Shown here: positions 26,118 through 62,011 of the stretch, piece after piece
Layout: each line of letters begins with the position of its first letter
Numbering within the stretch: position 1 is the first letter of the stretch
From: Candidatus Collierbacteria bacterium
Lineage (GTDB): Bacteria; Patescibacteriota; Microgenomatia; UBA1400; JACPES01
Direction of reading: 5' to 3'
Assembly: GCA_016183365.1 (NCBI GenBank)
Contig: JACPES010000003.1
Location: 269,051 to 333,050 of the forward strand
Length of the DNA stretch: 64,000 nucleotides
Notes under the pieces: model-generated
Told to the model about the DNA's origin: nothing
Database searches by the model: none
The model's input: the letters and a program-made list of their open reading frames with translations, nothing else
Program-made: the position numbers and the translations under genes

Positions 26118-27124
26118 ATTCAGTTAAATTTTTCTCACTCTTTACTCTTTACTCATTACTCTTTACTTCTTTCGTTCTTTACTCCTATACCCAAGTCGAT
26201 CTCAACCTGACATTGTCGAGCAATCCTGTCTATCAAACCATTCAACGTCAATTGACAAATATCGGTTACTTCAACCGCCCGCAATCCACCGCAATATTCT
26301 TTGCTATCCTAGCAGGACTTGTTGCTTGTTACTTGTTAATTGTTATTTTTCACGACAAATGGAAACTAACCACTAGGCAACTCTGGCAATTGCTTTTTGC
26401 TTTTTGCTTTTTGCTTTTTGTTTCCTATCCCGCTTTTGCCCACGACATTTTCAATTACATGTTTGACGCTAGGACTGTAGTTAAGTACGCTCAAAATCCC
26501 TACCTGACTACTCCTCTGGATTTTCCAAATGACGATTGGACTAGATTCATGCGTTGGACCCATGTTAGTTCGGTTTATCCTCCTGGTTGGCTGATAACCA
26601 CGATACCGTTTTATCTGTTAGGATTTGGGAAATTCACTTTAACGTTGCTATCGTTTAAATTCTTGGGGATGATTTCGTTTTTGGCATCCAGTTGGTTGAT
26701 GCTAAAAATTGCCGGACGACACGCCTGGATTCTCTGGAGTTTCAATCCGATGATTTTGATTGAGTCTCTAAGCAGTGTCCACAATGAAATCACTATGGTA
26801 GCTTTTACTCTGTTGGCCTTTTACATTGTCGGTGTCAACAAAAAAAATACAGCGCCTTATTTCTCGCTAATTTTTGCTGGACTTATAAAGTATATTTCGT
26901 TTCTGTTACTTCCATTCATAAACCACCCCGCGCGCGCTGCCGTCGCCGCTTGGGTTGGAGCATTGGCATTTTTCATTATGCGTGAAGTCAATCCGTGGTA
27001 TATCATCTTGCCGGTATCAATATCATTTATGTCAAAAAATAGATTTCTGACTAAATTTGCCATAATTGCCAGTTTGTTTGTAATGTATCGTTACTACCCA
27101 TGCGTAGCTATTTTTTCCTGTTAG
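26114..27124 (+). CDS. Polytopic membrane protein of unknown function
   Basis: 336 aa, multiple TM helices. Contains heptamer tandem repeats (TTTACTC)n and (TGCTTTT)n. Confidence 0.45.
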   Translation: MNSVKFFSLFTLYSLLFTSFVLYSYTQVDLNLTLSSNPVYQTIQRQLTNIGYFNRPQSTAIFFAILAGLVACYLLIVIFHDKWKLTTRQLWQLLFAFCFLLFVSYPAFAHDIFNYMFDARTVVKYAQNPYLTTPLDFPNDDWTRFMRWTHVSSVYPPGWLITTIPFYLLGFGKFTLTLLSFKFLGMISFLASSWLMLKIAGRHAWILWSFNPMILIESLSSVHNEITMVAFTLLAFYIVGVNKKNTAPYFSLIFAGLIKYISFLLLPFINHPARAAVAAWVGALAFFIMREVNPWYIILPVSISFMSKNRFLTKFAIIASLFVMYRYYPCVAIFSC

Positions 27125-28812
27125 TTTCCATAATTATTTTTTTATCGTTAACCGGGCCATCAATCGTTTCCGGTAATTTCGCTTTTGTGTTTGACATGGG
27201 TCGCGATCAGCTGTGGATCAGAGATATGGTGGAATTGCGGCGTCCGACTTTGATCGGTCCGTGGGGGTCAATTGCCGGTATTTTCTTTGGGCCGCTATGG
27301 TTCTATTTGTTATCTATCCCGTATTTGATTTTTAAAGGTGACCCGCGGGGAGCGGTTCTAGTTTCTCTGGCGGCTAATTTACTGACGATGATAATCGGAT
27401 GGCAATTTTTGCGGAAAAACAAACATCCGGTCGCCGGGAATATTTTCGCGATCTTGTATTCAGTTTCTCCTTTAACGATTAGCCTTTCATCTTTTGCTTT
27501 CCATGCTAATTTATTGCCTTTAATTACGCTGTTATTTTTTATCGGTCTCTATGTTTTTCATAAATCATTATTCATAAATCATAAATCATTGCTTGGTCTG
27601 TCTTTAGCGGCTCTATCCGCCTCTCTAGCCTATCATTTTGAACCCGCCGCCGGAGTGATGTTAACGGGGTTCATGACTGTTTTAATCTTAATAAATATGC
27701 GGCAAATGAAGATATTTCAATCATTTAAATCATTAAAAAATATATTAATAGCAATTATCTTATTTTTGATCCCCTTCCTCCCTCAACTTGTTTTTGAACT
27801 CCGCCACGATTTCATCCAAACCAAATCTTTGTTTGGCTATTTTAGCGGAGAAAACACCAGTTTGGGCGGGGTTCTGCCTTTAAGCGAAAGAATTGTTGAG
27901 CGGGGAATTAAGCTGGGCGAAACCTTGACATATTCCTTATTCACCATTGATTCTAATCTTTGGAAAATAGTTTTCTTGGGACTTTTTATCCTCGCGCTTC
28001 TTGCTTTAACAAAATTGAAAAAGTTCACCCTGAATCTCGATAGTTTTACTCTTTACTCTTTACTCTTTACCCTTTACTTTCTATCTTTCCATTATTTGGC
28101 TTATACATTTTTGTTTCCGGCAGAATTAAAAGGTTGGTATCTTAGCGGTTTCGTTTCAATTCATATTTTGGCATTTAGTTTGATTTGTGAATTTGTTTAT
28201 GGAGCCCCACGCTCTATCAATAGTGCGACATCCCGCTCGTTTCGCCAGAGCTTCAACGAGGCGAGCCTAAGCGCAATCCATCCACGGGTAAACTCACGAT
28301 TTTCTTGCGAAAGGCGGGATAAATCTAGCCATTTATTTATTTTAACCATTTTGATATTTATAATTATTAGGAATATTAATCCTTTTGATCGGATTTTCGG
28401 CGGACAAAAACCTCCGCTCCCTCCGGAAACTTTCAGCGCCCAAATTGAAGTGGTGGATTGGATCTATCGAGATGCAATTCATAAGGATAAGCCGTTTGCG
28501 GTTTACACCTACACTCCGCCGGTTTATGACTATCAATATCAGTATCTTTTATGGTGGCGCGGGATAAATAAATATAAGTTATTGCCTGCCGAGTATAGTT
28601 ATAAGCCGGGTGAGACCTCTTATCTTCAATATAAAGATCGATTTGTTTCCTCAATCTGGAAACCTAAAGACGCCCAGTTAATGTATTTGATAATTGAGCC
28701 GGATAATCTGGAGTTCAGAGTAGCCGGATGGATGGGAAATTTTTTAAGGTCTGATAAACTGGAAACCCGGGAATTTCCTTCTAAAGTCAAAGTTTTATTC
28801 GGAAGCTTATAA
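27100..28812 (+). CDS. GT-C-like polytopic membrane protein (paralog of 23812 and 51903) carrying a roughly 110-bp in-frame repeat-element insertion
   Basis: N-terminal FDMGRDQLW…GPWGSIAGIFFGPLWFYLL pattern. GC-rich insertion at 28187..28297. Confidence 0.5.
   Translation: MRSYFFLLVSIIIFLSLTGPSIVSGNFAFVFDMGRDQLWIRDMVELRRPTLIGPWGSIAGIFFGPLWFYLLSIPYLIFKGDPRGAVLVSLAANLLTMIIGWQFLRKNKHPVAGNIFAILYSVSPLTISLSSFAFHANLLPLITLLFFIGLYVFHKSLFINHKSLLGLSLAALSASLAYHFEPAAGVMLTGFMTVLILINMRQMKIFQSFKSLKNILIAIILFLIPFLPQLVFELRHDFIQTKSLFGYFSGENTSLGGVLPLSERIVERGIKLGETLTYSLFTIDSNLWKIVFLGLFILALLALTKLKKFTLNLDSFTLYSLLFTLYFLSFHYLAYTFLFPAELKGWYLSGFVSIHILAFSLICEFVYGAPRSINSATSRSFRQSFNEASLSAIHPRVNSRFSCERRDKSSHLFILTILIFIIIRNINPFDRIFGGQKPPLPPETFSAQIEVVDWIYRDAIHKDKPFAVYTYTPPVYDYQYQYLLWWRGINKYKLLPAEYSYKPGETSYLQYKDRFVSSIWKPKDAQLMYLIIEPDNLEFRVAGWMGNFLRSDKLETREFPSKVKVLFGSL
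28187..28297. repeat. GC-rich repeat element with GTGAATTTG … AAACTCAC termini inserted in frame in a GT-C gene
   Basis: Encodes …EFVYGAPRSINSATSRSFRQSFNEASLSAIHPRVNS…. Related to the 32749 element (GTGAAGTTT…AAACTTCAC). Confidence 0.55.
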
Positions 28813-28819
28813 TTTAAAT

Positions 28820-31644: not shown

Positions 31645-31746
31645 AAATACATTAATCATCTGGATATTCCGGGGGAATCCTCTGGTTGTCAATAGATTAA
31701 ATGTCGACTTCGGTCTGGTGGCAACGGAGCCGAAAACAATCAAACA

Positions 31747-33315: not shown

Positions 33316-34476
33316 AATCAGGAAAATCAATCCACTGGTTAAAAAATGGCTGGATAAAAACGGATTTAATTGCAGAGGGAGATAAGGATCTTTGATATAA
33401 AAAATCAGTAAGAAATAGGTTAGGCCGACTATTGCCAGGTCTTTGAATTTTTTAGTTTGAATAAATTTTGCGATTAGAACTATCCAAACGGGAATTAAAA
33501 TAGTGTAATGATGCTGCCACACAAAAACCGGCAAAAATAGCAAAACTATTATTGTTAAATGCCAAAAATCAATAAAGTCATTCCTAGTTGTTCCGGTTTT
33601 TATAATTTTTATAATTCTTATAGCTCTTACTCCTAAAATAAAACTAATCCCTAACCTAATCGCCGAATTTAAATTTCCGAAAACCCCAAATCTCGCTATC
33701 AACGCCGTTATCGACTGATTCATGTAGGAAGCGTTAACAGTTTCTTTGGTTACTTCACCCATCAGACCGGGAACAACCGACACAAAATAATATTTTGTCA
33801 AATCCCAACCGAAAACGAACCCTCCCATAACTGTTAGAAACGCAAAAGTGAAAACATACCAGTTAACCACTTTCCATTTTTTTCTAATCAAAAAATAAAT
33901 TAGTATCGGCGCCGGAGTCAACTTGAGAATAGTTGCCAAACCAAATAAAATTCCAGAAACAGTATCTTTTTTCCTGATTGTGACAAAATAATAACTGCCG
34001 ACAATCAATGCCAAAACGATCAAATTAATCTGCCCAAGCGCTAAAGTTAATTTTACCGGAAACATTTTTAAACACAGCGTAAAAATCAGCCATTTAATAA
34101 CCAATGATCCACGAGATCCCTCGACTACGCTACGTTCCGCTTGGGATGACGGGGAGGAACGATCAAAGTTGAGAATCCGTAAAGTCATGGATACCGTCAA
34201 CCAAAGACTTACTACTGACAAAACTGTAAATAACCATTCTGATAATTCTGTCGGTGCTGCCGCCAATGGAAGAAAAAAAAGGGTAGTGGCCGGCGAATAG
34301 TTATACCGGTCAAAAAATTTCAGCTTATAAGGATTTTCTCCATTCAAAGTCGCTTTTGTACCATCAATATAGACGCTAAAATCATTAAGAGGAAAGTTTT
34401 TTACCAAATTTGCCAACGGCACTACCTGACGGTATAAAATTATTGCTACAATCAAGAGTATTATTCTTTTAGCCAT
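33229..34476 (-). CDS. Polytopic membrane protein, GT87/DUF2029-like (putative mannosyltransferase)
   Basis: DFSVYIDGTKATLNGENPY, resembling the GT87 DFxxYYxAAxxxxxGxNPY motif. Start trimmed to the ATG at 34474-34476, which shares a CATG with the divergent 34475 gene. The 3' end overlaps the convergent 31747 gene. Confidence 0.45.
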   Translation of the reverse strand: MAKRIILLIVAIILYRQVVPLANLVKNFPLNDFSVYIDGTKATLNGENPYKLKFFDRYNYSPATTLFFLPLAAAPTELSEWLFTVLSVVSLWLTVSMTLRILNFDRSSPSSQAERSVVEGSRGSLVIKWLIFTLCLKMFPVKLTLALGQINLIVLALIVGSYYFVTIRKKDTVSGILFGLATILKLTPAPILIYFLIRKKWKVVNWYVFTFAFLTVMGGFVFGWDLTKYYFVSVVPGLMGEVTKETVNASYMNQSITALIARFGVFGNLNSAIRLGISFILGVRAIRIIKIIKTGTTRNDFIDFWHLTIIVLLFLPVFVWQHHYTILIPVWIVLIAKFIQTKKFKDLAIVGLTYFLLIFYIKDPYLPLQLNPFLSSHFLTSGLIFLILNLKSFSSNQNQIPNGKKLLKQNSGSGF

Positions 34477-36766
34477 GAAATCTTTCAACCATTTAACCAT
34501 TCTAACCATTTTAACTTTTGTAGTCACCACAATATTTTACTTCAAGCCCATCTGGAAAAATAAGTTGATTCCTTTTCCAGGCCGCCTGCTGGTATCTTAT
34601 TTTAGCCCCTGGAAAGAAGAATCATGGCCCGAGTTTCCGACCGGAGTTCCGCGTAAAGGTCTATTGGGTTTTGATACCGCCAGAATGATGGGTTCCTGGC
34701 GCAGTTTTATTACAAACGAACTTAAACAAGGCAGATTGCCGACCTGGAACCCGCATCAGTTCGCCGGCGCCCCGCTTTTAGCCAATTTCCAATCGGCCAC
34801 TTTCTTTCCTCCCAATCTAATTTATCTCCTGCTTCCTTTTTCAATCGCCTGGACAATTTTAGTCATTTTTCAACCCTTGTTAGCAAGTTTTGGGATGTAT
34901 TTATTGCTTAAATCACAGTTTAAAGACAAAAACCTAATAACTAACAACCAAATACTAATAACTATTCTTCCTTCTCTCGCCTACGGTTTTTCCGCCTGGA
35001 TGTCTGTTTGGATAGAATGGAATATTCACGGTTTTGTTTACGCCCTGCTTCCATTTGTGCTCCTTTTTATCCATAAGAGAAAAGCCATTTTAATCATTTT
35101 AACCATTTCAGCCATTATTTTTGCCGGTCATCCGCAAATGGCCTTTATTGCCCTGACGGCTGCCGCGCTCTTTGCCGCGGTCAATCACCGTCTTAAAAAA
35201 TTTCTGTTGTCAGCCGCGGTCGCCCTTCTAATTACTTCTGTCCAGTGGATTCCCGCTGTTCGTTACTACCAAGAGGCCAGCCGGGAACAATCCTCAAGCG
35301 AATTTACTTACGAAAAAACTCTCTTACCGTGGGGCCAAATCTCGCAATTAATAGTTCCTAATTATCTGGGAAATTCCGCCACCGGAAATTTCCGCGGCCA
35401 AGCAAATTTTGTAGAAACCACCGCTTATTCAGGAATAGCAATTTTGGGATTTGCGATTATGGGATTGTTGGCAAGAAACAAGAAACAAGAAGTAAAATTT
35501 GCCGTTTTTCTCCTTCTGACAATTTTCCTTTTTGTTCTCCCCAACCCATTTTCATTTCTTGTAGGCAAACTCAACATCCCGATTCTTTCCACCAGCGTCG
35601 CCAGTCGCTGGCTGATGCTTTTGCCTCTGGCGGTAACTTTGTTAGCTGCCGCCGGTATCGACCGATTTATTGAACTAACTACATCAAACCCTACTAAAAA
35701 GGCCAGGCCTTTTCCGGAAAGGCCTGGCCTTTTCTCTCCCGCCGTTTTTGTTTTTATCCTAATAGCTGGTCTGTGGATATACGCTTTGCTATCTCCTTCT
35801 GAACTCCGTTCGGTTTCCATCCGCAATCTGATGATACCCAGCGCCATCGCCGGCTTATTCCTATTAACATTGTCATTCCGGACTGCCGACCCGCCTGCAA
35901 GCGCCTGGAGCGCTAGCGACTGGCGGGCAGGTCGGCAGTCTGTAATGAAGATTTTATTGTTTTCTTTGGTTGTTTTGTCTATCGGTGAGCTTATTTTATT
36001 CGGTTGGAAAACAATGCCGTACACTGAAAAAAATTTCGTTTATCCGGAGACTCCGGTGTTAGAAAAATTACAGGAGTTTTCCAAAGATGGTAGTAGATTT
36101 GCATCTACTGATGGCAGCGTAATCGAGTCAAATTTTGCCACTTATTATAAGTTATATGATTTATCAGGCTACGATGCTTTGTACCCGCGCAGAATCGGAG
36201 AATTGATTTGGGTAGCTCAAAATAAAGGGCAACCTGTAGCCGATTTTTCCCGGTCTACCGTGGTCACTCCCACCTCTCCTTCACTGACCAAAGATAATCT
36301 TTGGAACTTGGCCGGCGTCCGCTGGATCATCAATAAAGATGACCTGCTGTCAGAACATCCCGGCCAAAGATCTAATGATTTATCTCCCGACTTCAAACTT
36401 ATCTGGGAAGAAGGCAAGTGGCAAATCTACGAAAACCTTAACGCATTTCCTCGGGCTTTCTTTATTAAGAGTGGGGATTGGATTGGTGAGGGTGATGACG
36501 TGATTAGTAGCTCCTTAAATCTCTCAACCTCTTTAGTCTCCCTTATCACCCCGGCTAGAATTGTCTTCTATCAGCCGACAAAGGTGGCGATAGAGGTTAG
36601 CGCCCCAGCTGATGGTTATCTGGTATTAACCGATACTTTTTATCCCGGCTGGACGGCTACCGTTGATGGTCCTTTGGCGGAGATTGTTCCGGCGTTTCAT
36701 GCTTTTAGAGCCGTTCCGGTCTCTCAAGGAAATCATATTGTTAAGTTTAGTTACGGTTCTTTATAA
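34475..36766 (+). CDS. YfhO-like GT-C polytopic membrane protein (paralog of 56130 and 59927)
   Basis: Shared N-terminal pattern: …YFSPWKEE…GRLPTWNPHQFAGAPLLANFQSATFFPP…. Carries in-frame palindromes at 35697..35734 and 35872..35948 and a (CAAGAAA)3 repeat. Confidence 0.5.
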   Translation: MKSFNHLTILTILTFVVTTIFYFKPIWKNKLIPFPGRLLVSYFSPWKEESWPEFPTGVPRKGLLGFDTARMMGSWRSFITNELKQGRLPTWNPHQFAGAPLLANFQSATFFPPNLIYLLLPFSIAWTILVIFQPLLASFGMYLLLKSQFKDKNLITNNQILITILPSLAYGFSAWMSVWIEWNIHGFVYALLPFVLLFIHKRKAILIILTISAIIFAGHPQMAFIALTAAALFAAVNHRLKKFLLSAAVALLITSVQWIPAVRYYQEASREQSSSEFTYEKTLLPWGQISQLIVPNYLGNSATGNFRGQANFVETTAYSGIAILGFAIMGLLARNKKQEVKFAVFLLLTIFLFVLPNPFSFLVGKLNIPILSTSVASRWLMLLPLAVTLLAAAGIDRFIELTTSNPTKKARPFPERPGLFSPAVFVFILIAGLWIYALLSPSELRSVSIRNLMIPSAIAGLFLLTLSFRTADPPASAWSASDWRAGRQSVMKILLFSLVVLSIGELILFGWKTMPYTEKNFVYPETPVLEKLQEFSKDGSRFASTDGSVIESNFATYYKLYDLSGYDALYPRRIGELIWVAQNKGQPVADFSRSTVVTPTSPSLTKDNLWNLAGVRWIINKDDLLSEHPGQRSNDLSPDFKLIWEEGKWQIYENLNAFPRAFFIKSGDWIGEGDDVISSSLNLSTSLVSLITPARIVFYQPTKVAIEVSAPADGYLVLTDTFYPGWTATVDGPLAEIVPAFHAFRAVPVSQGNHIVKFSYGSL
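35697..35734. repeat. Near-perfect palindrome AAAAGGCCAGGCCTTTTCCGGAAAGGCCTGGCCTTTT, in frame in a CDS
   Basis: Member of the AAGGCCWGGCC family (see 52251, 52534, 57168). Encodes KKARPFPERPGLFS. Confidence 0.75.
35872..35948. repeat. GC-rich palindromic element GTCATTCCGGACTGCCGACCCGCC…GGCGGGCAGGTCGGCAGTC…TGTAATGA, in frame in a CDS
   Basis: Long imperfect stem. The 5' terminus is identical to the 22955 element. Encodes LSFRTADPPASAWSASDWRAGRQSVMK. Confidence 0.65.
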
Positions 36767-37454: not shown

Positions 37455-38837
37455 ATGAACAAAAAACAAAAAACAAAAAACATCTTTGCTCTTTGCTCTT
37501 TGCTCTTTGCTCTTTTACCCCTATTCTGGAATCTCTTGCGTCCAGGTTTCTATTCTTCCGATGACGGCGAATGGATGGTAATTAGGTTAACCGCTTTTCA
37601 TGAATCTTTCCGCAAAGGGCAAATTCCGGTTAGGTGGTTGTCCAGATTAAATCATGAATATGGATATCCGGTAACTAATTTTCTTTATCCATTGCCATTT
37701 TATCTGGCTGAACCATTTTATGCGCTAACCAGGGATCCGGTTTTAGCCGTAAAAATAGTTATGGGATTGGCGATAGCCAGCATGGCTGTCGGATCATACG
37801 TTTTATTTAAAAAATGGGGAACAGCGGAGGGGATTATCGGTGCTTTAACATATTCTTATTCTCCATATGTAGTTTTTAATCTTTACCAGCGTGGTTCATT
37901 GGGAGAACTAGTGGCTATGGGAATAGTTCCATGGGTATTTTGGGCCATTTCTTCAAAAAAGCTGTTATTGTCATCGTTTTTTACCGCGGCATTAATAACA
38001 GCCCATAACGTGGTTGCCGCGCTTTTTTTGCCCCTAGTCGTGGTCTGTGTTTTGTGGAAATTTAAAACCAGAGCATGGTTTATGGTTCATGGTTTATGGT
38101 TTATGCTCGCTTTTGGCTTGAGCGCCTTCTTCTGGTTCCCGGCTTTGGCCGAGTACCGTTTTGTCCGGACATCTCAAATCGCGGTTTCGGATTTTAGTAA
38201 CGAATATCTTTCTTTACAAAATGCTTTTGAACGGACCGGACCAATCTCCGTTTTGACTAATTTTGGCTTGCCCTTGTTCTTTTTAACCGAAAATTCTAAA
38301 TGGTTTTGGAACTTATTCAAACCTTTGCAAATAATTCAGTTTCCCTGGAGATTATTAAATTTATTCTCTTTTATTTCTTCAGGAATTATTTCGTTTTTAA
38401 TTTTTAAATTAAAAAAATACCGCTTATTTCAATCTTTAATTATAATTTTTATAGCTGTTATAACATTTATTTCAGTTTTTCCCTTTCTGTCTCCAAAGTC
38501 TTTTACCAATTATCCTCCGAGCTATTATCAAACTAACGATGATAGTACCACGGTTAGAGCCGAATATACCCCGATCTGGGTAAATGATTGGCCTTTGGTT
38601 CGTCCGGAAACTCCCGTAAAACATTACTACCCCGGTCTAAAGTTGTTTGTGAACGGATCGGAAAAATTTGTTAATCCTGGTGAATATAACGGAGAGATAA
38701 GAAGTTCCGTTTTTGGCGAAGGCGGTAAGATCAAATTCATTTGGAGCGAGACGCCCTTGAGGGCAGCAACGGATTTAATATCAATTTTTAGTTTTTTGAT
38801 TATTTTATTTTTGTTTAAATATAGGTGGATAATATGA
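37455..38837 (+). CDS. Polytopic membrane protein (putative GT-C; paralog of 38834)
   Basis: The N-terminus is encoded by (AAAAAAC)3(TTTGCTC)4. GQIPVRWLSRLNHEYGYPVTNFLYPLPFY is conserved with the downstream paralog. Confidence 0.45.
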   Translation: MNKKQKTKNIFALCSLLFALLPLFWNLLRPGFYSSDDGEWMVIRLTAFHESFRKGQIPVRWLSRLNHEYGYPVTNFLYPLPFYLAEPFYALTRDPVLAVKIVMGLAIASMAVGSYVLFKKWGTAEGIIGALTYSYSPYVVFNLYQRGSLGELVAMGIVPWVFWAISSKKLLLSSFFTAALITAHNVVAALFLPLVVVCVLWKFKTRAWFMVHGLWFMLAFGLSAFFWFPALAEYRFVRTSQIAVSDFSNEYLSLQNAFERTGPISVLTNFGLPLFFLTENSKWFWNLFKPLQIIQFPWRLLNLFSFISSGIISFLIFKLKKYRLFQSLIIIFIAVITFISVFPFLSPKSFTNYPPSYYQTNDDSTTVRAEYTPIWVNDWPLVRPETPVKHYYPGLKLFVNGSEKFVNPGEYNGEIRSSVFGEGGKIKFIWSETPLRAATDLISIFSFLIILFLFKYRWII

Positions 38838-40357
38838 AGTTTATCCTTTTCATAATGTTGTTGAGTGTGCCTGCGGTCTGGCAAATCATCGCTCCTGGAT
38901 TTTTCCCGATGCACGACGATATCCAGGTGGCCAGAGTCGAGCAGATGTTTGTGGCTTTAAAATCAGGGCAGTTTCCTGTTCGTTGGGTGCCTGATTTAGG
39001 GTATGGCTACGGGTATCCGATTTTTAATTTTTATAATCCCTTAGCCTATTATTTTGGAGCGGCTTTTATGTTTTTAGGACTTGATGCTTTAGAGGCCACA
39101 AAATTGATGTTTATCTTTCCGGTTTTGGTATCGGGAATATCAATGTTTATATTTTCTAAACTTTTTTTATCCGATTTCGCTTCAGGATTTGCCGGATTAC
39201 TTTATGTTTATGCTGCATACCACGCGGTTCAAATCTACGTTAGGGGCGCGGTCGCCGAGTATTGGGCTTATGCCCTATTGCCGTTGGTTTTCTATGCCAT
39301 TTGGAAAAGAAAAATTATTTTTGCCGGACTAACTTTGGCTGCTTTAATCGCATCTCACAATCTTACTGCTTTTATGACTATTCCTTTTTTGGTGCTTTTA
39401 TTTTTATTTCGATATTTTAAAATATCGAAACTAAAAAATTTCAATAATGATAATTTAATCTTAATATTGTTTAGAGGAATGGTGCCATTGATGATTGGTT
39501 TAGGTTTGAGCGCCTTTTTTTGGCTACCATCTATTCTGGAATCTCCAAAAACCTTAGTTAGCCAAATGGTATTTGAAAAATTTGATCCCCCCTCAAAACA
39601 TGTGGTTTATCCATTACAACTATGGTCCGGAGTTTGGGGTTACGGCGGGTCATCTGCCGGAATTGATGATGGATTATCGTTTCAAATAGGTAAAATTCAT
39701 TTGATAGGAAGTCTTGCGGCAATTGCTATATTGCTATATTGTTATATTGTTAAACGAAAAGAAATTCAATTAACAATTGAGCAATTTAACAATTTAGCAA
39801 TTTTCTCTGTCGTCGGCTTAATACTTTCAGTATTTATCCTACTTCCTTTATCCCGGCCAATTTGGGATGCCTTTCCGGTCCTTTCCTATATCCAATTTCC
39901 CTGGCGCTTTCTGACGTTTGTTTCTCTATTTAGCTCTCTATTGACAGCTTGGGCGATTACAATGGTCTTGAACCTGATAGTAAAAAAAGAAGCCATGAAA
40001 AATGTAGCGTTCATTGCTTCTTGCTTCCTGCTTCTTGTTTCTTATATCAAATTCTTCCAACCCCAATTTAAATTTCCGGTTACAGCGGATGAACTAATTA
40101 CCCGGGAAAAACTGGTCTGGGATTATTCTAGGATCTCCTATGAATACTTGCCAAAGGGGTTTATTCCGCCCATAAACGCTGAAGTTGCCTTAAGAGTAGA
40201 TAATAAGCAGAATCAACTATTGGTCGACAGCCTAAAAGAGCAAACTATGGTTAGACGGGTTGCGAATATAATTAGCTTGTTCACGTTTATAACCTTTATA
40301 GCATTTGTTGTTGTTATTCCCTTTTGTAAGAAAAATGGACAAAATCTCTCAAGTTAA
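38834..40357 (+). CDS. Polytopic membrane protein (putative GT-C; paralog of 37455)
   Basis: GQFPVRWVPDLGYGYGYPIFNFYNPLAYY. ATG at 38834 (the ORF call from 38825 uses GTG). Confidence 0.45.
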   Translation: MKFILFIMLLSVPAVWQIIAPGFFPMHDDIQVARVEQMFVALKSGQFPVRWVPDLGYGYGYPIFNFYNPLAYYFGAAFMFLGLDALEATKLMFIFPVLVSGISMFIFSKLFLSDFASGFAGLLYVYAAYHAVQIYVRGAVAEYWAYALLPLVFYAIWKRKIIFAGLTLAALIASHNLTAFMTIPFLVLLFLFRYFKISKLKNFNNDNLILILFRGMVPLMIGLGLSAFFWLPSILESPKTLVSQMVFEKFDPPSKHVVYPLQLWSGVWGYGGSSAGIDDGLSFQIGKIHLIGSLAAIAILLYCYIVKRKEIQLTIEQFNNLAIFSVVGLILSVFILLPLSRPIWDAFPVLSYIQFPWRFLTFVSLFSSLLTAWAITMVLNLIVKKEAMKNVAFIASCFLLLVSYIKFFQPQFKFPVTADELITREKLVWDYSRISYEYLPKGFIPPINAEVALRVDNKQNQLLVDSLKEQTMVRRVANIISLFTFITFIAFVVVIPFCKKNGQNLSS

Positions 40358-41831
40358 GCAAAAAACAGTTAAAGGGTTGGTGGCCCTGATAGCCAGAACC
40401 GGTCTGCTGCAGGTTATAGCGGTTGTAGCGACATTTATTTTGACGGTATTTTTAGATCCAGCTCAATTTGGAGTTTTTGCGATCGTGGCCGCAGCAGTTG
40501 ACATTTTGGTTTATTTTTCAGATATCGGTTTAGCCGGAGCGTTGATCCAGAAGCAAGATATAAACGAAAAAGATCTGGCTACAACTTTTACGATTCAGCA
40601 GATATTAAGTTTGACTTTGTTGGGTCTTGGATTTTTAGCCGGCAGCTTGGTGGCTAATATTTACTCTCTTTCCTTAGCCGGAATTTGGTTGTTCAGAGCG
40701 TTATTGGTTTCAGTTTTTTTGTCAGGCTTGAAAACGATTCCCAGTGTTTTATTGGAAAGAAAACTTGATTTTATTAAAGTCGTTACCGTCCAGATTGCGG
40801 AAACATTAATTTTTTACGGACTGGCGGTATTTTTGGCGTGGAAAGGGTTTGGAGTATCCAGTTTTTCTTGGGCGGTTTTATTCAGGAGTGTCATTGGGTT
40901 GATAATGATTTATATTTTAGCGCCATGGAGACCGCGAATCGGGATTGACAGGATTTCATTCAAAAAACTGATATCGTTTGGAATGCCGTTTCAATTAAAT
41001 AGTCTTTTAGGTTTGGTAAAAGATCGGATGTTGGTGGCATATTACGGAGCGATTTTGTCTCCGGTTCATGTCGGGTATCTACAGTGGGCGGAAAGATGGT
41101 CTCTTTTCCCGTTGAGAATGGTGGTGGATAATGTCTCAAAGGTGACTTTTCCGGCTTATTCCAGACTGCAGGCAGAACGCGATCATTTAGTCAAAGCTAT
41201 TGAAAAATCAATTTTTTTTACCGGTCTTTTCATTTTCCCGATCTTAATAGGACTGATAGTTTTGGCTCCGACTGCCCTGGAAGTTATTCCCAAATATAAT
41301 AAATGGCAGCCGGCTCTTTTGGCTTTAGGTTTATTTTCCATAAATGCTATGTGGTCTTCAATTTCGACTACAATTACTAACGCGTTTGCGGCTATGGGGA
41401 AAATTAATATTAATTTGAAATTAATGTTAATGTGGACCGTGCTGACATGGATTTTGACTCCATTATTGATGTCTAAATACGGTTATAATGGCGTGGCCGC
41501 CGCTTCGGCTTTGGTAGCTTCATCTTCAATAATTCCGATGATAATCCTTAAAAGGATATTACCGATAAGGCTATTCTCGAATATCTGGCCGCAATTAATC
41601 AACGCGTTAATAATGGGGTTAATAATCCGTTATGTTAATTTAAAATTACCATTTACTATTTACTCTTTGCTATTTACCGTTCTCCTCGGTGCTATACTTT
41701 ATGGTGCGTTATTAATGGTTTTAATGCCTAAAAAACTGATAGCAGAAATAAAATCAGTCTGGTTGTTGTCATCCCGAGCGAAGCCAGGTACCGGCCGGAA
41801 CCTGGCGAAGTCGAGGGATCTAACGGAGTGA
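40335..41831 (+). CDS. Wzx-type oligosaccharide flippase (MOP superfamily polysaccharide biosynthesis protein)
   Basis: About 14 TM helices with a Wzx-like N-terminus (…LVALIARTGLLQVIAVVATFILTVFLDPAQFGVFAIVAAAVDILVYFSDIGLAGALIQ). The last 22 residues are encoded by the palindromic element at 41768..41832. Confidence 0.65.
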   Translation: MDKISQVKQKTVKGLVALIARTGLLQVIAVVATFILTVFLDPAQFGVFAIVAAAVDILVYFSDIGLAGALIQKQDINEKDLATTFTIQQILSLTLLGLGFLAGSLVANIYSLSLAGIWLFRALLVSVFLSGLKTIPSVLLERKLDFIKVVTVQIAETLIFYGLAVFLAWKGFGVSSFSWAVLFRSVIGLIMIYILAPWRPRIGIDRISFKKLISFGMPFQLNSLLGLVKDRMLVAYYGAILSPVHVGYLQWAERWSLFPLRMVVDNVSKVTFPAYSRLQAERDHLVKAIEKSIFFTGLFIFPILIGLIVLAPTALEVIPKYNKWQPALLALGLFSINAMWSSISTTITNAFAAMGKININLKLMLMWTVLTWILTPLLMSKYGYNGVAAASALVASSSIIPMIILKRILPIRLFSNIWPQLINALIMGLIIRYVNLKLPFTIYSLLFTVLLGAILYGALLMVLMPKKLIAEIKSVWLLSSRAKPGTGRNLAKSRDLTE

Positions 41832-42823: not shown

Positions 42824-42850
42824 CGCATTAACGTATCAACACATTAATCT

Positions 42851-55087: not shown

Positions 55088-56032
55088 ATGAATCATAATT
55101 CGCAAATCATTTTATACAAGACTCCCGATGATCAGATTAAAGTCCAAGTTAAATTGGAGAAAGAAACTGTTTGGTTGAATCAAGACCAAATGGTTCAACT
55201 TTTTCAGAGAGATCAGTCTGTAATTTCAAAACATATCGCGAATGTGTTTCGGGAAAAAGAACTAAAGAAAGAAAGCAATATGCAATTTTTGCATATTGCT
55301 GGATCAGATAAACCGGTAGCCTTTTACAATTTAGATGTAATTATTTCTATTGGCTATAGGGTTAAATCGATCAGAGGTACACAGTTTAGGATTTGGGCCA
55401 CGAAGACGATTAAAGAATACATGATTAAAGGCTTTGTGATGGATGACGAAAGATTGTCTCAAGGAAAAACCGGAAATAAATTTAATTATTATGACGAACT
55501 TCTAGAGAGGGTTAGGGCAATTAGAGCGTCGGAAAAGAATTTATACGAAAAAGTAAAAGATATTTTTGCCACCAGCGTTGATTATAATTCTAAAACAAAA
55601 GAGGCCGCTAAATTTTTTGCCACGGTCCAAAATGAATTTCACTACGCCATTGCCGGATACACGGCGGCGGAGCTGATTGTTAAAAGAGCTAGCGGAAGGC
55701 AAAAAAACTTGGGAATGACTAACTGGAAAGGTAAAAGCGTGGTTAAGAGCGACGCGGTAATTGCTAATAATTACATGTTGGAAAGAGAACTTCGTCAATT
55801 GTATCTGTTGGTAGAGCAATTTCTATCTTTTGCCGAACTTCAAATTGAAAGAGAAAGACCGATGTACATGAGCGATTGGAGAAAGGCGCTAGATGAATTT
55901 TTAAGCCTGAATAGATTGGAATTATTGAAGAAGAAGGGTGGAATATCACACCAGAAAATGGAAAAATTTATTAAAAGCGAGTTAGAGAAATATAAAAGAA
56001 TTTCACGGTTGTCCTTAAGGAAAAAAACATGA
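55088..56032 (+). CDS. RhuM-family (virulence-associated) protein
   Basis: N-terminus …DDQIKVQVKLEKETVWLNQDQMVQLFQRDQSVISKHIANVF… matches the RhuM family signature. Confidence 0.7.
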   Translation: MNHNSQIILYKTPDDQIKVQVKLEKETVWLNQDQMVQLFQRDQSVISKHIANVFREKELKKESNMQFLHIAGSDKPVAFYNLDVIISIGYRVKSIRGTQFRIWATKTIKEYMIKGFVMDDERLSQGKTGNKFNYYDELLERVRAIRASEKNLYEKVKDIFATSVDYNSKTKEAAKFFATVQNEFHYAIAGYTAAELIVKRASGRQKNLGMTNWKGKSVVKSDAVIANNYMLERELRQLYLLVEQFLSFAELQIERERPMYMSDWRKALDEFLSLNRLELLKKKGGISHQKMEKFIKSELEKYKRISRLSLRKKT

Positions 56033-56129: not shown

Positions 56130-58190
56130 ATGATTAAAAGACAATTATTTCAATCAATTAATCAATTAATTAATTGGAGAGAAATTAAACCATATCTGGC
56201 ATTTTCTTTTATCTGGATAATATTTTCGTACCCTTTCTTTTTTCAGGGCAGGATTCCGGCGCCGCTGGATTTTTTGGTTAATTTTTACGCGCCGTGGGAT
56301 ACCTACTATGATTCGCCGGTAAAAAATCCGAGCTTATCCGATGTGGTCGCCCAAATAATTCCATGGAAGATTTTCAATGGCCAAGAACTGCGCGCTGGCA
56401 GAATTCCCTTATGGAATCCATATAATTTGACAGGGGCACCTCATTTGGGGAATTGGCAAAGCGGGGTTTTGTATCCGACGACTTTATTGTTTCTGATTTT
56501 TCCAGATCCTATTGCTTGGTCGCTTCATGTTTTACTTCAACCTTTGCTGGCTGGAATTTTTATGATTTTATTTTTACGGCAACTAAAAATTTCCCCCCTA
56601 GCTTCACTTTTGGGAGCAATAGTTTTTGCATATGGCGGATTTATGACATCCTGGTTTGAATGGGGAACTTTGGGCCACGCTCTGCTGTGGTTGCCGCTGG
56701 CATTATACGGAATATTAAGGACGAAGGACGAAGGACGAAGGACGAAGATATCAGCGTTAACGATTTTTTCTTTAACAATGTCTCTTTTGGCGGGGCATCC
56801 ACAAACCTCGATTTACGTCATGATTGCAGTTATCGGATACTATTTATATAAGAATATAAGAAATGACAATAAGCTCTCACTGTTTCTTGTTTCTTGTTCC
56901 TTGTTTCTTATCCCCATACTTCTTGCAGCCCCCCAAGTTTTTCCTTCAATCCAAGTTTATTCGGAGTCTGCACGGAATTTGGTTGACGGCAGAAGCTGGG
57001 CTAAAGCGTTTTTGATCAAGCCTGCCGATTTTTTAACATTCCTCGCTCCGGATTTCTTCGGTAATCCTACTACCAGAAATAGTTGGAGCGATTTTTCGTA
57101 TGTGGAAATGCAAGGATATGTTGGTGTCGTGACTTTTATGTTGGCATCAGTGGCTGTTATGAACATTAAAAGGCCTGGTCCCGCGGTGGCGGGGTCTAGC
57201 CTTATCAAGTTTTTGATTTGCGGGATTGTTATCGCATTAATGCTGGCGACTAAAAATCCGATTTCGGAATTGATTATTGATTTGAATTTGCCAATTATTT
57301 CCGACAGCAGTCCGGCCAGAATCATGGGACTAATTAACTTTTCATTGGCGGTTTTGGCGGCATTTGGTCTGGATTCTTTTACAAAACTTATTAAAGAGAA
57401 AAAGACAAAATTCTTAAACTCCGGGATTTATTTTATCGCGGCTATTTTGGCCGGAATGTGGATATGGACTTTTGCGTCAACTAATCCTAATGCCCTGGTG
57501 ACCAGAAGAAACTTGATTTTTCCCTCAACCGTTTTTGCGGTCTTTAGTATGGCGTATTTTCTGATTTCAAAAATATTCGCTAATCCGCGGGTCCGGACAT
57601 TGTTTTTTGTTTTTTGTTTTTTGTTTTTTGTCTCTCTCGATCTTTTCCGCTTTCACCATAAATTTACGCCTTTTTCAGATATAAAAAATTGGTATCCGGA
57701 AGTTCCGGTTATTACTCAACTCAAATCATCTTCAGGACGAATTTTTGGGACTTTGGAGGCGAATTTAAACCTGCCGTTTAGGTTGAAATCAATTGATGGT
57801 TACGATCCCTTAATCAATCGGAATCTTGTTTTAATGACGTACGATCCACAGGCGCTGTCAACACATAACAGGATTACTTCGCCGGACTTTCCGAAGGGAA
57901 ACGCCCAAACAATTGCCAGCTTAGGTAAATTGGGAGTCAAGAGAGTTATAGATTCTGCCGTTCCCGGGGGTAATTCCTGGGATCTTCGGTTATGGGAATA
58001 CGGCGATCAGTTCCGGTTGGATTGGAAAGATGTAAAGTATCAGATACTTTACAACACGCAGGCTCAAGAATCAGAACTGGAACCGATTTCCGGAATGAAA
58101 AACGGCCAAATAAAACTATTTAACCTTGGGATATTAATTTCCAGCTCGACCGTATTTGGTATGCAAATTTGGAAAAAATATGCTAAATAA
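56130..58190 (+). CDS. YfhO-like GT-C polytopic membrane protein (paralog of 34475/59927)
   Basis: …YAPWDTYYDSPVKNPSLSDVVAQIIPW…GRIPLWNPYNLTGAPHLGNWQSGVLYP…. Contains (ACGAAGG)4, (TTTCTTG)4 and (GTTTTTT)4 heptamer arrays and a degraded palindrome at 57168..57205. Confidence 0.5.
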   Translation: MIKRQLFQSINQLINWREIKPYLAFSFIWIIFSYPFFFQGRIPAPLDFLVNFYAPWDTYYDSPVKNPSLSDVVAQIIPWKIFNGQELRAGRIPLWNPYNLTGAPHLGNWQSGVLYPTTLLFLIFPDPIAWSLHVLLQPLLAGIFMILFLRQLKISPLASLLGAIVFAYGGFMTSWFEWGTLGHALLWLPLALYGILRTKDEGRRTKISALTIFSLTMSLLAGHPQTSIYVMIAVIGYYLYKNIRNDNKLSLFLVSCSLFLIPILLAAPQVFPSIQVYSESARNLVDGRSWAKAFLIKPADFLTFLAPDFFGNPTTRNSWSDFSYVEMQGYVGVVTFMLASVAVMNIKRPGPAVAGSSLIKFLICGIVIALMLATKNPISELIIDLNLPIISDSSPARIMGLINFSLAVLAAFGLDSFTKLIKEKKTKFLNSGIYFIAAILAGMWIWTFASTNPNALVTRRNLIFPSTVFAVFSMAYFLISKIFANPRVRTLFFVFCFLFFVSLDLFRFHHKFTPFSDIKNWYPEVPVITQLKSSSGRIFGTLEANLNLPFRLKSIDGYDPLINRNLVLMTYDPQALSTHNRITSPDFPKGNAQTIASLGKLGVKRVIDSAVPGGNSWDLRLWEYGDQFRLDWKDVKYQILYNTQAQESELEPISGMKNGQIKLFNLGILISSSTVFGMQIWKKYAK

Positions 58191-58893: not shown

Positions 58894-59930
58894 AGAAAAT
58901 TTTAATCCATTCTCCATATTGGCATATCGGCGGCGGCGGAGAACGATACGCTTTGACAGCGGCGCAATGTTTAAGTCGTGAGGCTTTAGTCTCGGTGGAC
59001 GTGGGAGAAAATAACAACTTGGAAGTTCTCGGTGAAAGCTTGGGGCTAGATTTAAACCGGGTGAAAACCGTTCGAAAAATAACCGAGGTTAAGAAAATTA
59101 TAGGTTTCGATGGCATATTTTGGCTGTCAGATGGCAGTATCCCATTTCTGCCGTTTTTTTCGACTAAAGTTATTCATTTTCAAGCTCCGTTCCAAAAAGT
59201 AGATGGTAAAAACCTGAAAAACAGGTTGAAACTAATGGGGACTAAAGTGATTTGTAATTCCAAATATACTAAAGGGTTTATTGATAAAGAATTCGGGATA
59301 AATTCAATGGTGATTTATCCGCCGGTTGCGACTGACCGATTTAAACCAATGTCTAAGGACAAATTGATTTTGACAGTTGGCCGATTTAGTTCTTCTTCCC
59401 AATTTAAACGTCAGGATTTACTGATAGAGGCGTTTAAAGATTTAATCAAAAACAGAGTTAGGGGTTGGAGGATGGTTGTGGTCGGTAAAGTCGAAGATAA
59501 CCAAAGCCTTAAAATGATTTCCGACCTAAGGTCGAAAATAAAAGGTTTTCCGATAACCATTAAAACAGATTTAGATCAGGACAGATTAAGGTCTCTTTTT
59601 TGCCGGTCGGCGATATATTGGCACGCTGCAGGTTACGGAGTAAATTTGAACGATTATCCGGAACGAGCCGAGCATTTCGGCATTAGCACGGTTGAAGCTA
59701 TGGCCGCCGGAGCTATTCCGTTATCTTTCGCTGCCGGTGGTCAATTAGAAATAATTTCTAGTGGGGAGAACGGATTTTTATGGACAACTTCGCAGGAACT
59801 GATAATGCTGACAAAAAAGATAATTAATGATTCCGAATTAAAAGAGCGGATTGGTTTGGCGGCTATTAGCCGGGCCGAGAATTTTAGCCAAGACAATTTC
59901 TGTCGGAAAATTAGAGAATTGTTTAAGTGA
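58890..59930 (+). CDS. GT4 (group 1) glycosyltransferase
   Basis: C-terminal GT-B pattern …LTVGRFSSSSQFKRQDLLIEAF…FGISTVEAMAAGAIPL…. Confidence 0.72.
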   Translation: MKKILIHSPYWHIGGGGERYALTAAQCLSREALVSVDVGENNNLEVLGESLGLDLNRVKTVRKITEVKKIIGFDGIFWLSDGSIPFLPFFSTKVIHFQAPFQKVDGKNLKNRLKLMGTKVICNSKYTKGFIDKEFGINSMVIYPPVATDRFKPMSKDKLILTVGRFSSSSQFKRQDLLIEAFKDLIKNRVRGWRMVVVGKVEDNQSLKMISDLRSKIKGFPITIKTDLDQDRLRSLFCRSAIYWHAAGYGVNLNDYPERAEHFGISTVEAMAAGAIPLSFAAGGQLEIISSGENGFLWTTSQELIMLTKKIINDSELKERIGLAAISRAENFSQDNFCRKIRELFK

Positions 59931-62011
59931 AAATATTAAATTTGGTTCGAAATTTAATAGCTTATGTCATTCCAGCGATCCTTCGACAAGCTCAGGATGG
60001 TGAGCACCGTCGAACCAAAGCTGGAATCTATTTAAATAGTAGTTCCGCCAAAGGCGGAATGACAATGGTGATTTTGATTGTACTATCTTTGTCTTTTTTC
60101 TGGCCTGTATGGTTTAAGGGAAAACTGCCGATTCCGGCCGATGCTTTAGTCGGATTGTATCACCCGTTCCGAGATTATTACGCGGCTGATTTTCCGAATG
60201 GGGTCCCGTTTAAAAATTATATTTTGACTGATCCGGTATTGCAGCAGTACCCGTGGAAATGGTTAGCTATAAATCAGTTAGGGAGTATCCTTAAAGGAGT
60301 CTCCTTTAAGGATACTCCCTTGTTGGAAAATCCTTATTCTTTTGGCGGTTACGGAGCCAGTTCAATAGAAAATATTCAGGCGGGGACATTTTATCCGCTG
60401 AACATCCTTTTTTTTCTTATCAATAATTTTTCCGCGGCATGGACGGTTTTTATCATCCTTCAGTCAATCTTGGCTTCATTATTTATGTACTGGTGGCTTA
60501 AAGAAAATTCCTTAAAAAATTCGGCAGCGATTTTTGGCGGGTTAGTTTGGGCGTTTTCTTCTTTCAATTTGGTCTGGCTGGAGTGGGGGAATATTGGACA
60601 TGCCGGACTGTGGTTGCCATTGGCACTATTGTGTGTTGACAAAATGCAAAAAACAAAAAACAAAAAACAAAAAACCTGGAAATGGCATGCGATTCTGCAA
60701 TTTGTACTATCAAGCAGCCTTTTTGCCGGACATTTGCAAGTGACGCTTTATCTACTGATGGCTGTGGCGCTGTATTGGTTTATCCGGCTGGGTATTTCGA
60801 AACGATCTATTTCATTGTTTCTTGTTTTTTGTTTCTTGTTTCTTGCCCTTACGTCCATTCAATGGATTCCATCACTGAAATTTACTCTCTCATCAAATCG
60901 TGAAGTCGAGCAACAGGATGCTCTTACCCGCGAAGGGTTTTTCATTCGTCCCCATCAGTTAGTTCAAATGATAAGTCCGGATTTTTTTGGCAACCCGTCG
61001 ACTTTGAATTATCGCGGCGCTTGGAATTATGCCGAACAGGTAATTTATATCGGAATCATTCCTTTACTATTTGTTCTTTTAGGCGTTCTCACCAAAAACT
61101 CTCAAAAAAATGATGTAGATTCGATATGCTATAGCTTATCGAATCTACATCTACATAGGTTTTGTTGGTCGCTGATAATTATCGGTTTGTTGTTCGCGAC
61201 TGACAATCCGATTTCGCGTTTGCCTTATCAATTAAAGCTGCCATTAATTTCTGATCTGCAACCGACAAGATTATCTTATTTGATTACTTTCGGACTATCT
61301 TCCCTTTCGGCTTTTGGTCTCAACGAGTTTATTAAAAATCCCCGGAAATTATTCTCAAAAGTTATAACCATCGTTGTCGTCTTTACCGTTTTGCTGTTTG
61401 CCCTATTAATAATTAGCAGTAAACTTTCACCGGAAGATAAATTAATTTCCCAACGCAACTTAATATGGCCAGTAACGCTTTTGATTTTATTTTATATTTT
61501 AAGTGGATTGTTCTACTTGTTTGAGAACAAAAAACAAAAAACAAAAAACAAAAAACTTCAGCTCTTTGCTCTTTGCTCTTTGCTTTTTGTCATTTCCGAT
61601 CTCTTCCGTTTCGGCTGGAAATTTACTCCGTTCTCTCCAAAAGAATATTTGTATCCCATAACTCCTGCCATAAAATTTTTGCAAAACAATATTCGGGAAA
61701 ACGACAGATATATGACTTTAGACCGCCGCATTTTACCTCCGAATGCAAATATAATTTATGAATTGAAATCAATCGAAGGTTACGATCCAATTTATTCGAA
61801 ACAATACGCGTTGTTAATAGGAGAGATGGAATCCGGGGAAGTAGCCGATAAGCCGCAGAGTTTTGGTCGGATTATCAGGCCTATAAACTATAAATCCCCG
61901 ATTACTGCTCTTTTGGGAGTCCGTTACGCGCTTAGTCTGTCTGATCTTGAAGAGGAGAGGTGGGTTAAGGTTTTTCAAGAAGGGAAAACTAGAATCTATG
62001 AAAGACGGTAG
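59927..62011 (+). CDS. YfhO-like GT-C polytopic membrane protein (paralog of 34475/56130); start uncertain
   Basis: The ORF call uses GTG at 59927. Alternative ATGs at 60059 and 60065 lie at the end of the 59966..60063 repeat element. Carries (AAAAAAC)4 ×2, (TTTGCTC)3 and (TTTCTTG)4 arrays and a perfect 39-bp palindrome. Confidence 0.5.
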   Translation: MKILNLVRNLIAYVIPAILRQAQDGEHRRTKAGIYLNSSSAKGGMTMVILIVLSLSFFWPVWFKGKLPIPADALVGLYHPFRDYYAADFPNGVPFKNYILTDPVLQQYPWKWLAINQLGSILKGVSFKDTPLLENPYSFGGYGASSIENIQAGTFYPLNILFFLINNFSAAWTVFIILQSILASLFMYWWLKENSLKNSAAIFGGLVWAFSSFNLVWLEWGNIGHAGLWLPLALLCVDKMQKTKNKKQKTWKWHAILQFVLSSSLFAGHLQVTLYLLMAVALYWFIRLGISKRSISLFLVFCFLFLALTSIQWIPSLKFTLSSNREVEQQDALTREGFFIRPHQLVQMISPDFFGNPSTLNYRGAWNYAEQVIYIGIIPLLFVLLGVLTKNSQKNDVDSICYSLSNLHLHRFCWSLIIIGLLFATDNPISRLPYQLKLPLISDLQPTRLSYLITFGLSSLSAFGLNEFIKNPRKLFSKVITIVVVFTVLLFALLIISSKLSPEDKLISQRNLIWPVTLLILFYILSGLFYLFENKKQKTKNKKLQLFALCSLLFVISDLFRFGWKFTPFSPKEYLYPITPAIKFLQNNIRENDRYMTLDRRILPPNANIIYELKSIEGYDPIYSKQYALLIGEMESGEVADKPQSFGRIIRPINYKSPITALLGVRYALSLSDLEEERWVKVFQEGKTRIYERR
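59966..60063. repeat. Full-length GC-rich palindromic element GTCATTCCAGCGA … GGCGGAATGAC at the 5' end of a GT-C gene
   Basis: Long-range stem ATTCCAGC/GCTGGAAT plus a TTCCGCCAAAGGCGGAA hairpin. Translated in frame if the GTG start is used (…VIPAILRQAQDGEHRRTKAGIYLNSSSAKGGMTM…). Confidence 0.7.
60281..60319. repeat. Perfect 39-bp palindrome GGGAGTATCCTTAAAGGAG-T-CTCCTTTAAGGATACTCCC inside a CDS
   Basis: 19-bp arms checked by hand. Encodes GSILKGVSFKDTPL. The core AAAGGAGTCTCCTTT recurs at 52832..52846. Confidence 0.88.

Follow-up and report, generated by a model that had tools for sequence, protein, structure and literature searches.

Heptanucleotide arrays in the envelope-glycosylation genes of a Candidatus Collierbacteria bacterium: in frame, quantised in length and probably a product of slippage and recombination, with no support for an on/off switch

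What does a short tandem repeat with a seven-nucleotide unit do inside a gene? The question is raised by a 64,000-nucleotide (nt) stretch of the genome of a Candidatus Collierbacteria bacterium (assembly GCA_016183365.1, contig JACPES010000003.1, positions 269,051 to 333,050; hereafter the window), in which heptamer arrays lie inside the open reading frames (ORFs) of a glycosylation gene cluster. Seven is not a multiple of three, and the original prediction took these arrays for slipped-strand on/off switches of surface glycosylation. We find that role unsupported. Our favoured explanation, to which we give a probability of roughly 0.6, is heptamer-biased slippage together with recombination, filtered by reading frame and structural tolerance. 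It builds on what can be observed directly, namely a heptamer excess, a quantised array length, an in-frame state, hot spots, a three-unit difference between orthologs and mosaic alleles.

The arrays themselves are real. Tandem Repeats Finder, with which all arrays were located (coordinates are positions in the whole window), recovered every one that had been listed, 1–9 bases from where it had been placed and always inside an ORF. At period 7, the window holds 9 perfect arrays of at least three copies, as against 0 in 100 order-3 Markov simulations, and at the other periods from 5 to 15 it holds none. With a looser score, 16 period-7 arrays are found in the 48 ORFs of the window, compared with 0.0 when codons are shuffled across whole genes and 0.07 when they are shuffled within blocks of 15 codons; the counts for periods 5, 6, 8, 9, and 10 are 0, 0, 1, 1, and 0. 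Because codon shuffling abolishes the signal, local amino-acid or codon composition does not explain the arrays.

The same result bears on the idea that selection acts on the protein, favouring heptad-periodic peptides in amphipathic or transmembrane helices, with the DNA repeat being secondary. Three heptamers do encode one seven-residue heptad, or two helical turns, the arrays are located in helices and loops, and peptides such as ISNLKSQISNLK show an a/d hydrophobic pattern. Yet the period is 7 nt and not 21 nt, and in many cases the nucleotides repeat perfectly; a given base change recurs in every unit despite their differing codon positions; and one array (locus L009) lies in intergenic DNA. 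With the signal lost even when codons are shuffled within 15-codon blocks, we consider this idea highly improbable and largely refuted. The original prediction had also regarded the arrays as slippage-type repeats of the DNA and not as protein repeats, and on this point we agree.

The period-7 excess is lineage-wide. In a related set of ~110 loci (~750 kb, or ~810 kb with the window) around YfhO homologs from genomes and metagenomes, there are 33 perfect arrays of at least three copies at period 7 versus 3, 1, 1, and 1 at periods 8, 9, 6, and 5. All loci taken together yield 68 non-redundant arrays in 42 unit classes, with units that are 74% A+T; given this heterogeneity, we rejected a specific motif, binding site, or mobile-element family as the source. 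In the window, the classes AAAAAAC, AAACAAG, AAAGAGC, and AAAGAGT (rotations and both strands counted together) make up 11 of the 16 arrays.

Array length is quantised. Over the ~810 kb, the histogram of perfect lag-7 runs first falls off as at other periods and then rises to a distinct mode at 23–27 matches, which corresponds to arrays of 30–34 nt (~4.4–4.9 copies), with a maximum of 37 nt. The long, open-ended distribution of tract lengths that marks contingency loci was not found. Three units amount to 21 nt, or seven codons, and keep the frame, so arrays would be expected to pile up at a seed plus three units, at just this length. According to the favoured explanation, replication slippage or duplication with a 7-nt bias would make short heptanucleotide microsatellites across Microgenomates genomes; these genomes are gene-dense, nearly every event would hit coding DNA, and the frame-keeping outcomes alone would survive. 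Polytopic GT-C enzymes would accept the new segments at a few sites that are free of constraint, and GT2, GT4, ArgRS, and methyltransferase proteins would accept them in surface loops or helices. Recombination could later homogenise the arrays, resize them in three-unit steps and move them between alleles and even genes. We infer slippage as the generator and selection as the filter.

The reading frame is kept throughout. In the window and the ~110 loci, 47 of 49 arrays lie in long intact ORFs that extend far to both sides, and not one of these 47 is out of frame; 28 of them belong to genes that were not picked through a full-length protein match. The other two are in L033, left unassigned at the edge of its locus, and in L009, at a 3' gene end and in the adjoining intergenic DNA. 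The L009 array, (AGCAGTA) x5.3 at 495–531, is the longest perfect array (37 nt); it takes in the final codons of a GT2-like ORF and stops 14 nt short of the YfhO start codon, so that a change in its length would shift spacing and not the reading frame. Elsewhere, gain or loss of one unit would frameshift the gene, as had been claimed: a simulated change of one unit in either direction truncates every host protein, at the array or within ~80 codons.

Are the arrays then true contingency loci? If so, second-order selection would keep the tracts, a one-unit change would reversibly switch GT-C, GT2, or GT4 genes and so diversify the surface of an episymbiont under phage or host pressure, and slow switching could leave consensus assemblies almost always ON. 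The truncations just described, with a unit length not divisible by three, fit this account, as do the enrichment of arrays in the surface-glycosylation cluster and the two genes with arrays right behind the start codon (37458 and 26137). Even between deeply diverged homologs, arrays are found at the same sites and remain homogeneous although their unit differs, which implies repeated unit gain and loss over time. There is moreover a proven precedent. The O-acetyltransferase NeuO of the Escherichia coli K1 prophage CUS-3, a glycan-modifying enzyme, carries a 5' heptanucleotide variable-number tandem repeat, (AAGACTC)n, of 3–53 units with a mode of 20; 65.6% of the alleles in sequenced genomes are OFF, and sub-populations with one unit more or fewer are measurable in a single culture (PMC13001214). 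As in the window, the repeat stands in the coding region of a surface-glycan enzyme, and full-length protein results from multiples of three units alone, with one heptad encoded per three units (PMC13001214).

Unlike the single 5' tract of NeuO, however, tracts of the type seen here have 3–5.6 units, occur up to three or four per gene, are mostly internal, and are in frame and invariant among close relatives. Against the 65.6% of OFF alleles in NeuO stands the figure of 0 out-of-frame arrays in 47. Contingency loci of Haemophilus, Neisseria, and Campylobacter also have repeats that are not multiples of three in surface-structure genes, glycosyltransferases included; their tracts are long, hypervariable both between and within strains, as a rule single in a gene and close to its 5' end or promoter, and have frequent OFF alleles, none of which was found here (PMC2651432, PMC11868660).

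Copy number is constant wherever close relatives can be compared, at the level of assembled sequences. Among ~20 full-length proteins that are at least 90% identical and come from different samples, there is no copy-number difference; L068 and L071 (91% identical) have the same array, and in the block that is 97–98% identical between the window and L109 both C-terminal arrays have equal copy numbers. Indel spectra of 16 locus pairs revealed no 7-nt indels at arrays in close pairs, the alignments of divergent pairs being too noisy to read. The comparison of relatives that the original prediction had proposed thus gave no unit-number variation, either in proteins of at least 90% identity or in loci of 91–98% identity. 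It is important to remember that the nearest relatives of window proteins 37455 and 59927 are only ~70–74% identical, so that these are not true strain-level comparisons for this genome. Look-ups of their exact sequences turned up no other contig, and a scan of species-representative genomes gave one close relative only, L001.

Contingency loci are expected to be confined to dispensable, environment-facing functions, and here too the arrays differ, with two in argS and another in the gene of a cytoplasmic methyltransferase. The argS gene (10512..12254, plus strand) is essential and therefore serves as a control case: its arrays, (TTCCTTC) x4.9 with 85% matches at 11938..11971 (amino acids [aa] 476-487, in the linker before the DALR domain) and (CAACGCT) x4.4 at 12131..12161 (aa 540-550, in a DALR-domain loop), are of the same kind as the others and cannot be contingency devices. 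The methyltransferase ORF 16635..17438, on the minus strand, has an array at 17188..17222 that reads (GTTAATG) x5.0 on the plus strand and encodes HQPLTINHQPLT (aa 73-84), immediately ahead of the DLGTGSG motif. All three had been missed by the original prediction.

Disrupted alleles exist, and we considered each as a possible OFF allele before rejecting it. The break in P0141 falls inside a palindromic insert, and that in P0029 is distant from any array. P0132/L106 is truncated N-terminally at ~aa 200, where there is no array; P0123/L107 comes from a low-coverage contig in which homology begins near the loop site and the upstream DNA is unrelated. In P0156 and P0171, which seem truncated at the 5' end, the ORF is intact and the start had been miscalled. 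Where a gene is broken, then, it is broken elsewhere than at an array. From all of this we infer that the arrays lack any switching function. We still hold contingency to be unlikely, and not more remote than that, because homogenised arrays persist at fixed sites.

What the arrays encode follows from their arithmetic. Three heptamers, or 21 nt, are read in all three frames, and each base of the unit stands once at codon position 2. For this reason a T-rich unit gives hydrophobic heptads of Phe, Leu, Val, Cys, and Ser, and an A-rich unit gives heptads of Lys, Asn, Gln, Thr, Glu, and Arg. The mean hydropathy of the encoded segments is +1.3 to +3.2 for T-rich arrays and -2.4 to -3.0 for A-rich ones, and reading a unit on the opposite strand swaps the class (AAAAAAC versus GTTTTTT, CAAGAAA versus TTTCTTG). 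An array thus builds either a generic transmembrane helix or a positive-inside loop.

These segments are placed at hot spots. In 101 non-redundant YfhO orthologs, three sites (aa 240-260, 300-320, and 520-560 of the reference) account for 35 of the 37 arrays; conserved control segments of the same proteins contain none, and other periods give 0–1. At the three sites, weaker lag-7 signals in 17, 17, and 6 further orthologs are likely decayed arrays. Cytoplasmic GT2 enzymes have arrays at one fixed loop directly after the DDGSTD motif, and GT4 enzymes have them in the interdomain linker. Orthologs that are 58–86% identical carry different units in the same columns, each change being present in all copies. 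The paralogs 56130 and 59927 likewise have (ACGAAGG)4 and (AAAAAAC)4 in the equivalent loop, which bears out both that pairing and the recurrent local turnover that the original prediction had drawn from it.

Resizing in steps of three units can be seen directly. L112 starts ATG-AACAAAAAAC-TTCAGC, with 1.4 copies, where L113 and the window have ~3.6–4.4 copies; the difference between L112 and L113 is exactly three units (21 nt, 7 aa). Similarly, set against most orthologs, the A-rich array at 61526 amounts to an insertion of 7 aa, and the loop hot-spot segment has a median length of 45 aa with an array and 36.5 aa without one.

Recombination has left its own traces. Collierbacteria YfhO alleles are mosaic, with blocks of 97–100% identity abutting blocks of 50–70% (59927..62011 against L109, L106, L026, L108, L107, L027, and L029), and several YfhO homologs begin at ~aa 200-215 with unrelated DNA upstream. 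L026 and L108 are 98.3% identical, and only the transmembrane-array block has been exchanged between them, CTGTTTA-type for TTGTTTC-type at the same length. Breakpoints lie at arrays in some cases (this block, and the right edge of the divergent block between L109 and L106) and elsewhere in others.

A composite, (AACAAAA)n-TTCAGC-(TCTTTGC)n, encodes a Lys-rich stretch and a transmembrane helix and is shared by the N-terminus of a PTPS_related protein (L112) and the C-terminal transmembrane helix of YfhO 59927 and L109; its positions are 37458-37515 and 61526-61589 in the window, around 301 in L112 and L113, and 2205-2255 in L109. That two unrelated genes share an identical linker suggests, from sequence comparison, the ectopic transfer of a topology cassette. 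In addition, the GT2 gene of L033 and the YfhO gene of L066 carry an identical (AAATCAA)4.6 array with a similar 3' flank. Taken together, the two shared modules indicate that arrays also travel as modules.

Could most arrays have arisen in this way, with ectopic gene conversion or template switching copying them in from elsewhere and so spreading ready-made cassettes of a Lys-rich loop and a transmembrane helix among the genes of membrane proteins? The two shared modules, the swapped block, and the four unit classes that dominate the window would all be accounted for. Nevertheless, 42 unit classes among 68 arrays are many for a copying process, units are lineage-specific at most homologous sites, so that local origin or remodelling is also required, and the avoidance of stop codons and of certain residues in three frames limits the usable units and raises the chance that the same one recurs. 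As an account of most arrays, transfer therefore seems to us quite improbable.

Several points weigh against slippage and recombination under a frame filter, our favoured explanation. The arrays are perfect and fixed in site in orthologs that are 35–70% identical while the unit changes in all copies; this needs ongoing homogenisation, which a neutral model does not obviously give without frameshifted intermediates. A three-unit gain in an essential gene without a lethal intermediate likewise lacks an explanation. Neither the transmembrane hot spot nor the GT2 loop is lengthened by its arrays, which replace sequence rather than inserting it. Array density is ~4.6 times higher in the glycosylation cluster (20 in 38 kb) than in the housekeeping part of the window (3 in 26 kb), though tolerance may account for the bias. 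Finally, low-level length heterogeneity may exist, as the comparisons rest on assemblies and not on reads.

The best argument for some selective maintenance is that homogenised arrays persist at fixed sites. It is conceivable, if rather doubtful, that in Microgenomates the heptamer tracts serve evolvability and are for that reason kept at set positions in the genes of envelope glycosylation. A dedicated or unusually biased process of slippage and conversion would write and rewrite 7-periodic tracts of ~31 nt and provide rare reversible inactivation, resizing by seven residues (two helical turns), and portable cassettes of a positive loop and a transmembrane helix that pass from gene to gene. 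If true, it would amount to slow contingency in quantised steps combined with the shuffling of modules, a system undescribed in any bacterium.

For annotation, the consequence is simpler. A label of phase-variable glycosyltransferases in a bacterium of the candidate phyla radiation (CPR) was tempting, is unsupported, and has now been removed. What replaces it is a rule, by which a 7-nt slippage bias and a frame filter would yield 21-nt quanta that build and resize transmembrane helices and positively charged loops. Were the rule to apply genome-wide, it would offer a simple route by which the polytopic glycosyltransferases of CPR bacteria, whose families are very large and diverge fast, acquire and reshape elements of their topology. 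We recommend caution with automated screens that equate a non-multiple-of-three repeat in a surface gene with phase variation.

Comparable repeats are known from elsewhere. Over-represented heptameric simple sequence repeats (SSRs) are cited for Xanthomonas (GGGAATC), Nostoc (GGGGA(T/C)T), and Calothrix (tandem heptanucleotides) in PMC4692102 (its refs. 33 and 39), along with a 2007 genome survey of SSRs and the hypothesis that the geometry of the polymerase active site favours slippage of heptamer length. As in those genomes, for which polymerase slippage has been proposed and no clear link to pathogenicity genes is seen, the excess described here is specific to unit length 7 when set against neighbouring lengths and shuffles. 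The SSRs cited there are intergenic, G-rich, variable in length, and built on few genome-specific motifs, whereas our arrays are coding (47 of 49), A/T-rich, quantised in length, and of at least 42 classes (42 in 68 arrays). The Borg elements also have recent perfect tandem repeats in genes, in frame and creating new low-complexity protein segments (PMC9879509). Unlike those, the arrays here have a unit of 7, keep the frame through the three-unit quantum, and encode transmembrane or loop heptads, not long disordered regions. Repeat units in Borg ORFs are reportedly multiples of three in themselves. Literature searches brought up no account of heptamer arrays in CPR bacteria or Microgenomates, whether coding and quantised in length or not.

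The genes that host the arrays deserve a description. The first 23 kb of the window contain housekeeping genes, rpoC, metG, and argS among others, and ~23.8-63.6 kb is a dense envelope-glycosylation cluster of polytopic PMT_2, GT87, YfhO, and PTPS_related membrane proteins, a Polysacc_synt flippase, and GT2, GT4, and methyltransferase genes. Pfam matches to membrane glycosyltransferase families exceed the curated cut-off for ORFs 23812, 28820, 30358, 31747, 33229, 34475, 38825, and 61947, and fall below it for 27100 (a weak PMT_2 match) and 56130. ORF 59927..62011, identical to hypothetical protein HYU89_03025 of Candidatus Collierbacteria (CPR, Microgenomates), was assigned through orthologs with PF09586; ORF 37455 has no Pfam match of its own, and its orthologs carry PF10131 (PTPS_related). 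No Pfam match was obtained for ORF 26114. ORF 31747 matches the ArnT structure 5ezm (E = 2e-14), and a YfhO alignment profile matched none of the solved structures. The literature describes YfhO as an enzyme with a GT-C fold that belongs to extracytoplasmic glycosylation systems of three components (PMC5836110, PMC8035078). The claim that the arrays lie in GT-C genes stands insofar as the hosts can be placed, by sequence, in the polytopic PMT/ArnT, GT87, YfhO, or PTPS_related families; the flippase, argS, and a methyltransferase gene have arrays as well.

The remaining arrays are all on the plus strand. ORF 26114..27124 has three, namely (ACTCTTT/TTTACTC) x6.6, imperfect, at 26137..26184 (aa 8-24, in the N-terminal hydrophobic segment SLFTLYSLLFTSFVLYS); (ACTTGTT) x4.1 at 26317..26345 (aa 68-78, a hydrophobic segment); and (TTGCTTT) x4.4 at 26390..26420 (aa 93-103, LLFAFCFLLFV), which is perfect with 100% matches. 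In ORF 27100..28812, (TCATAAA) x4.6 at 27558..27589 encodes FHKSLFINHKSL (aa 153-164) and (TTTACTC) x4.9 at 28045..28078 encodes FTLYSLLFTLYF (aa 316-327). The YfhO paralog 34475..36766 has a double array at 35443..35491 (aa 323-339), with (TTTGGGA) x3.3 at 35443-35466 followed by (CAAGAAA) x2.9 at 35472-35491. Right behind the ATG of ORF 37455..38837, the composite at 37458..37515 joins (AACAAAA) x3.6 (37458-37482) to (TCTTTGC) x4.7 (37483-37515) and encodes NKKQKTKN-IFALCSLLFALL, in which a Lys-rich tail leads into a signal-anchor helix; further on in this ORF lies (ATGGTTT) x4.4 at 38075..38105 (aa 207-217, AWFMVHGLWFM). PTPS_related ORF 38825..40357 contains (TTGCTTC) x4.3 at 40014..40043 (aa 397-407), and the flippase ORF 40305..41831 contains (TTACTAT/TTTACTC-like) x4.6 at 41646..41677 (aa 448-458, LPFTIYSLLFT). 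Those at 26317, 35443-35466, and 41646 are additions to the original prediction.

The two YfhO genes at the far end of the cluster have an array at each hot spot. In paralog 56130..58190, these are (AAGGACG) x4.4, perfect with 100% matches, at 56717..56747 (aa 196-206, LRTKDEGRRTK), in the positively charged loop of hot spot 1; (TGTTTCT) x4.1 at 56881..56909 (aa 251-260, LFLVSCSLFL), in the transmembrane helix of hot spot 2; and (TTGTTTT) x4.6, perfect, at 57600..57631 (aa 491-501, LFFVFCFLFFV), at hot spot 3. In ORF 59927..62011, they are (ACAAAAA) x5.3 at 60639..60675 (aa 238-250, DKMQKTKNKKQKT), (TTTCTTG) x5.0 at 60810..60845 (aa 295-307, ISLFLVFCFLFLA), and, at hot spot 3, the composite at 61526..61589 (aa 534-555), in which (AACAAAA) x4.4 (61526-61556) is followed by TTCAGC and (GCTCTTT) x4.1 (61561-61589). 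The unit CAAGAAA at 35472 is the reverse complement of TTTCTTG at 56881 and 60810, and the unit at 57600 is the reverse complement of AAAAAAC.

Heptamers are not the only small repeats in the region. Perfect palindromes of 33–41 nt, mostly GC-rich, stand in frame within ORFs at 35697-35733, 52241-52273, 52534-52566, 54568-54602, and 60280-60320; examples are AAGGCCTGGCCTTGCCGGGCAAGGCCAGGCCTT and GTCATTGCGAGCCCCGTTGCGGGGCTCGCAATGAC. Others are found just upstream of the transmembrane array (L109, L106, L027, and L029) and within the GT2 array (L068 and L034). They are in some orthologs and missing from others, often lie next to or within heptamer arrays, and include the insert within which the frameshifted allele P0141 breaks. 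They have the appearance of small insertion elements of a second class that likewise keep the frame.

Period-8 tandem arrays of 3.4–5.2 copies are located at 19717-19791, 20665-20728, and 42803-42865 (intergenic DNA or gene ends) and at 39722-39749 and 39770-39803 within ORF 38825..40357; several sit in the intergenic spacers of sugar-nucleotide and glycosylation genes. Lastly, a RhuM-family gene (Virulence_RhuM, E = 1e-94) at 55088-56032, between a GT2 gene and a YfhO paralog of the cluster, may be the remnant of a mobile element.

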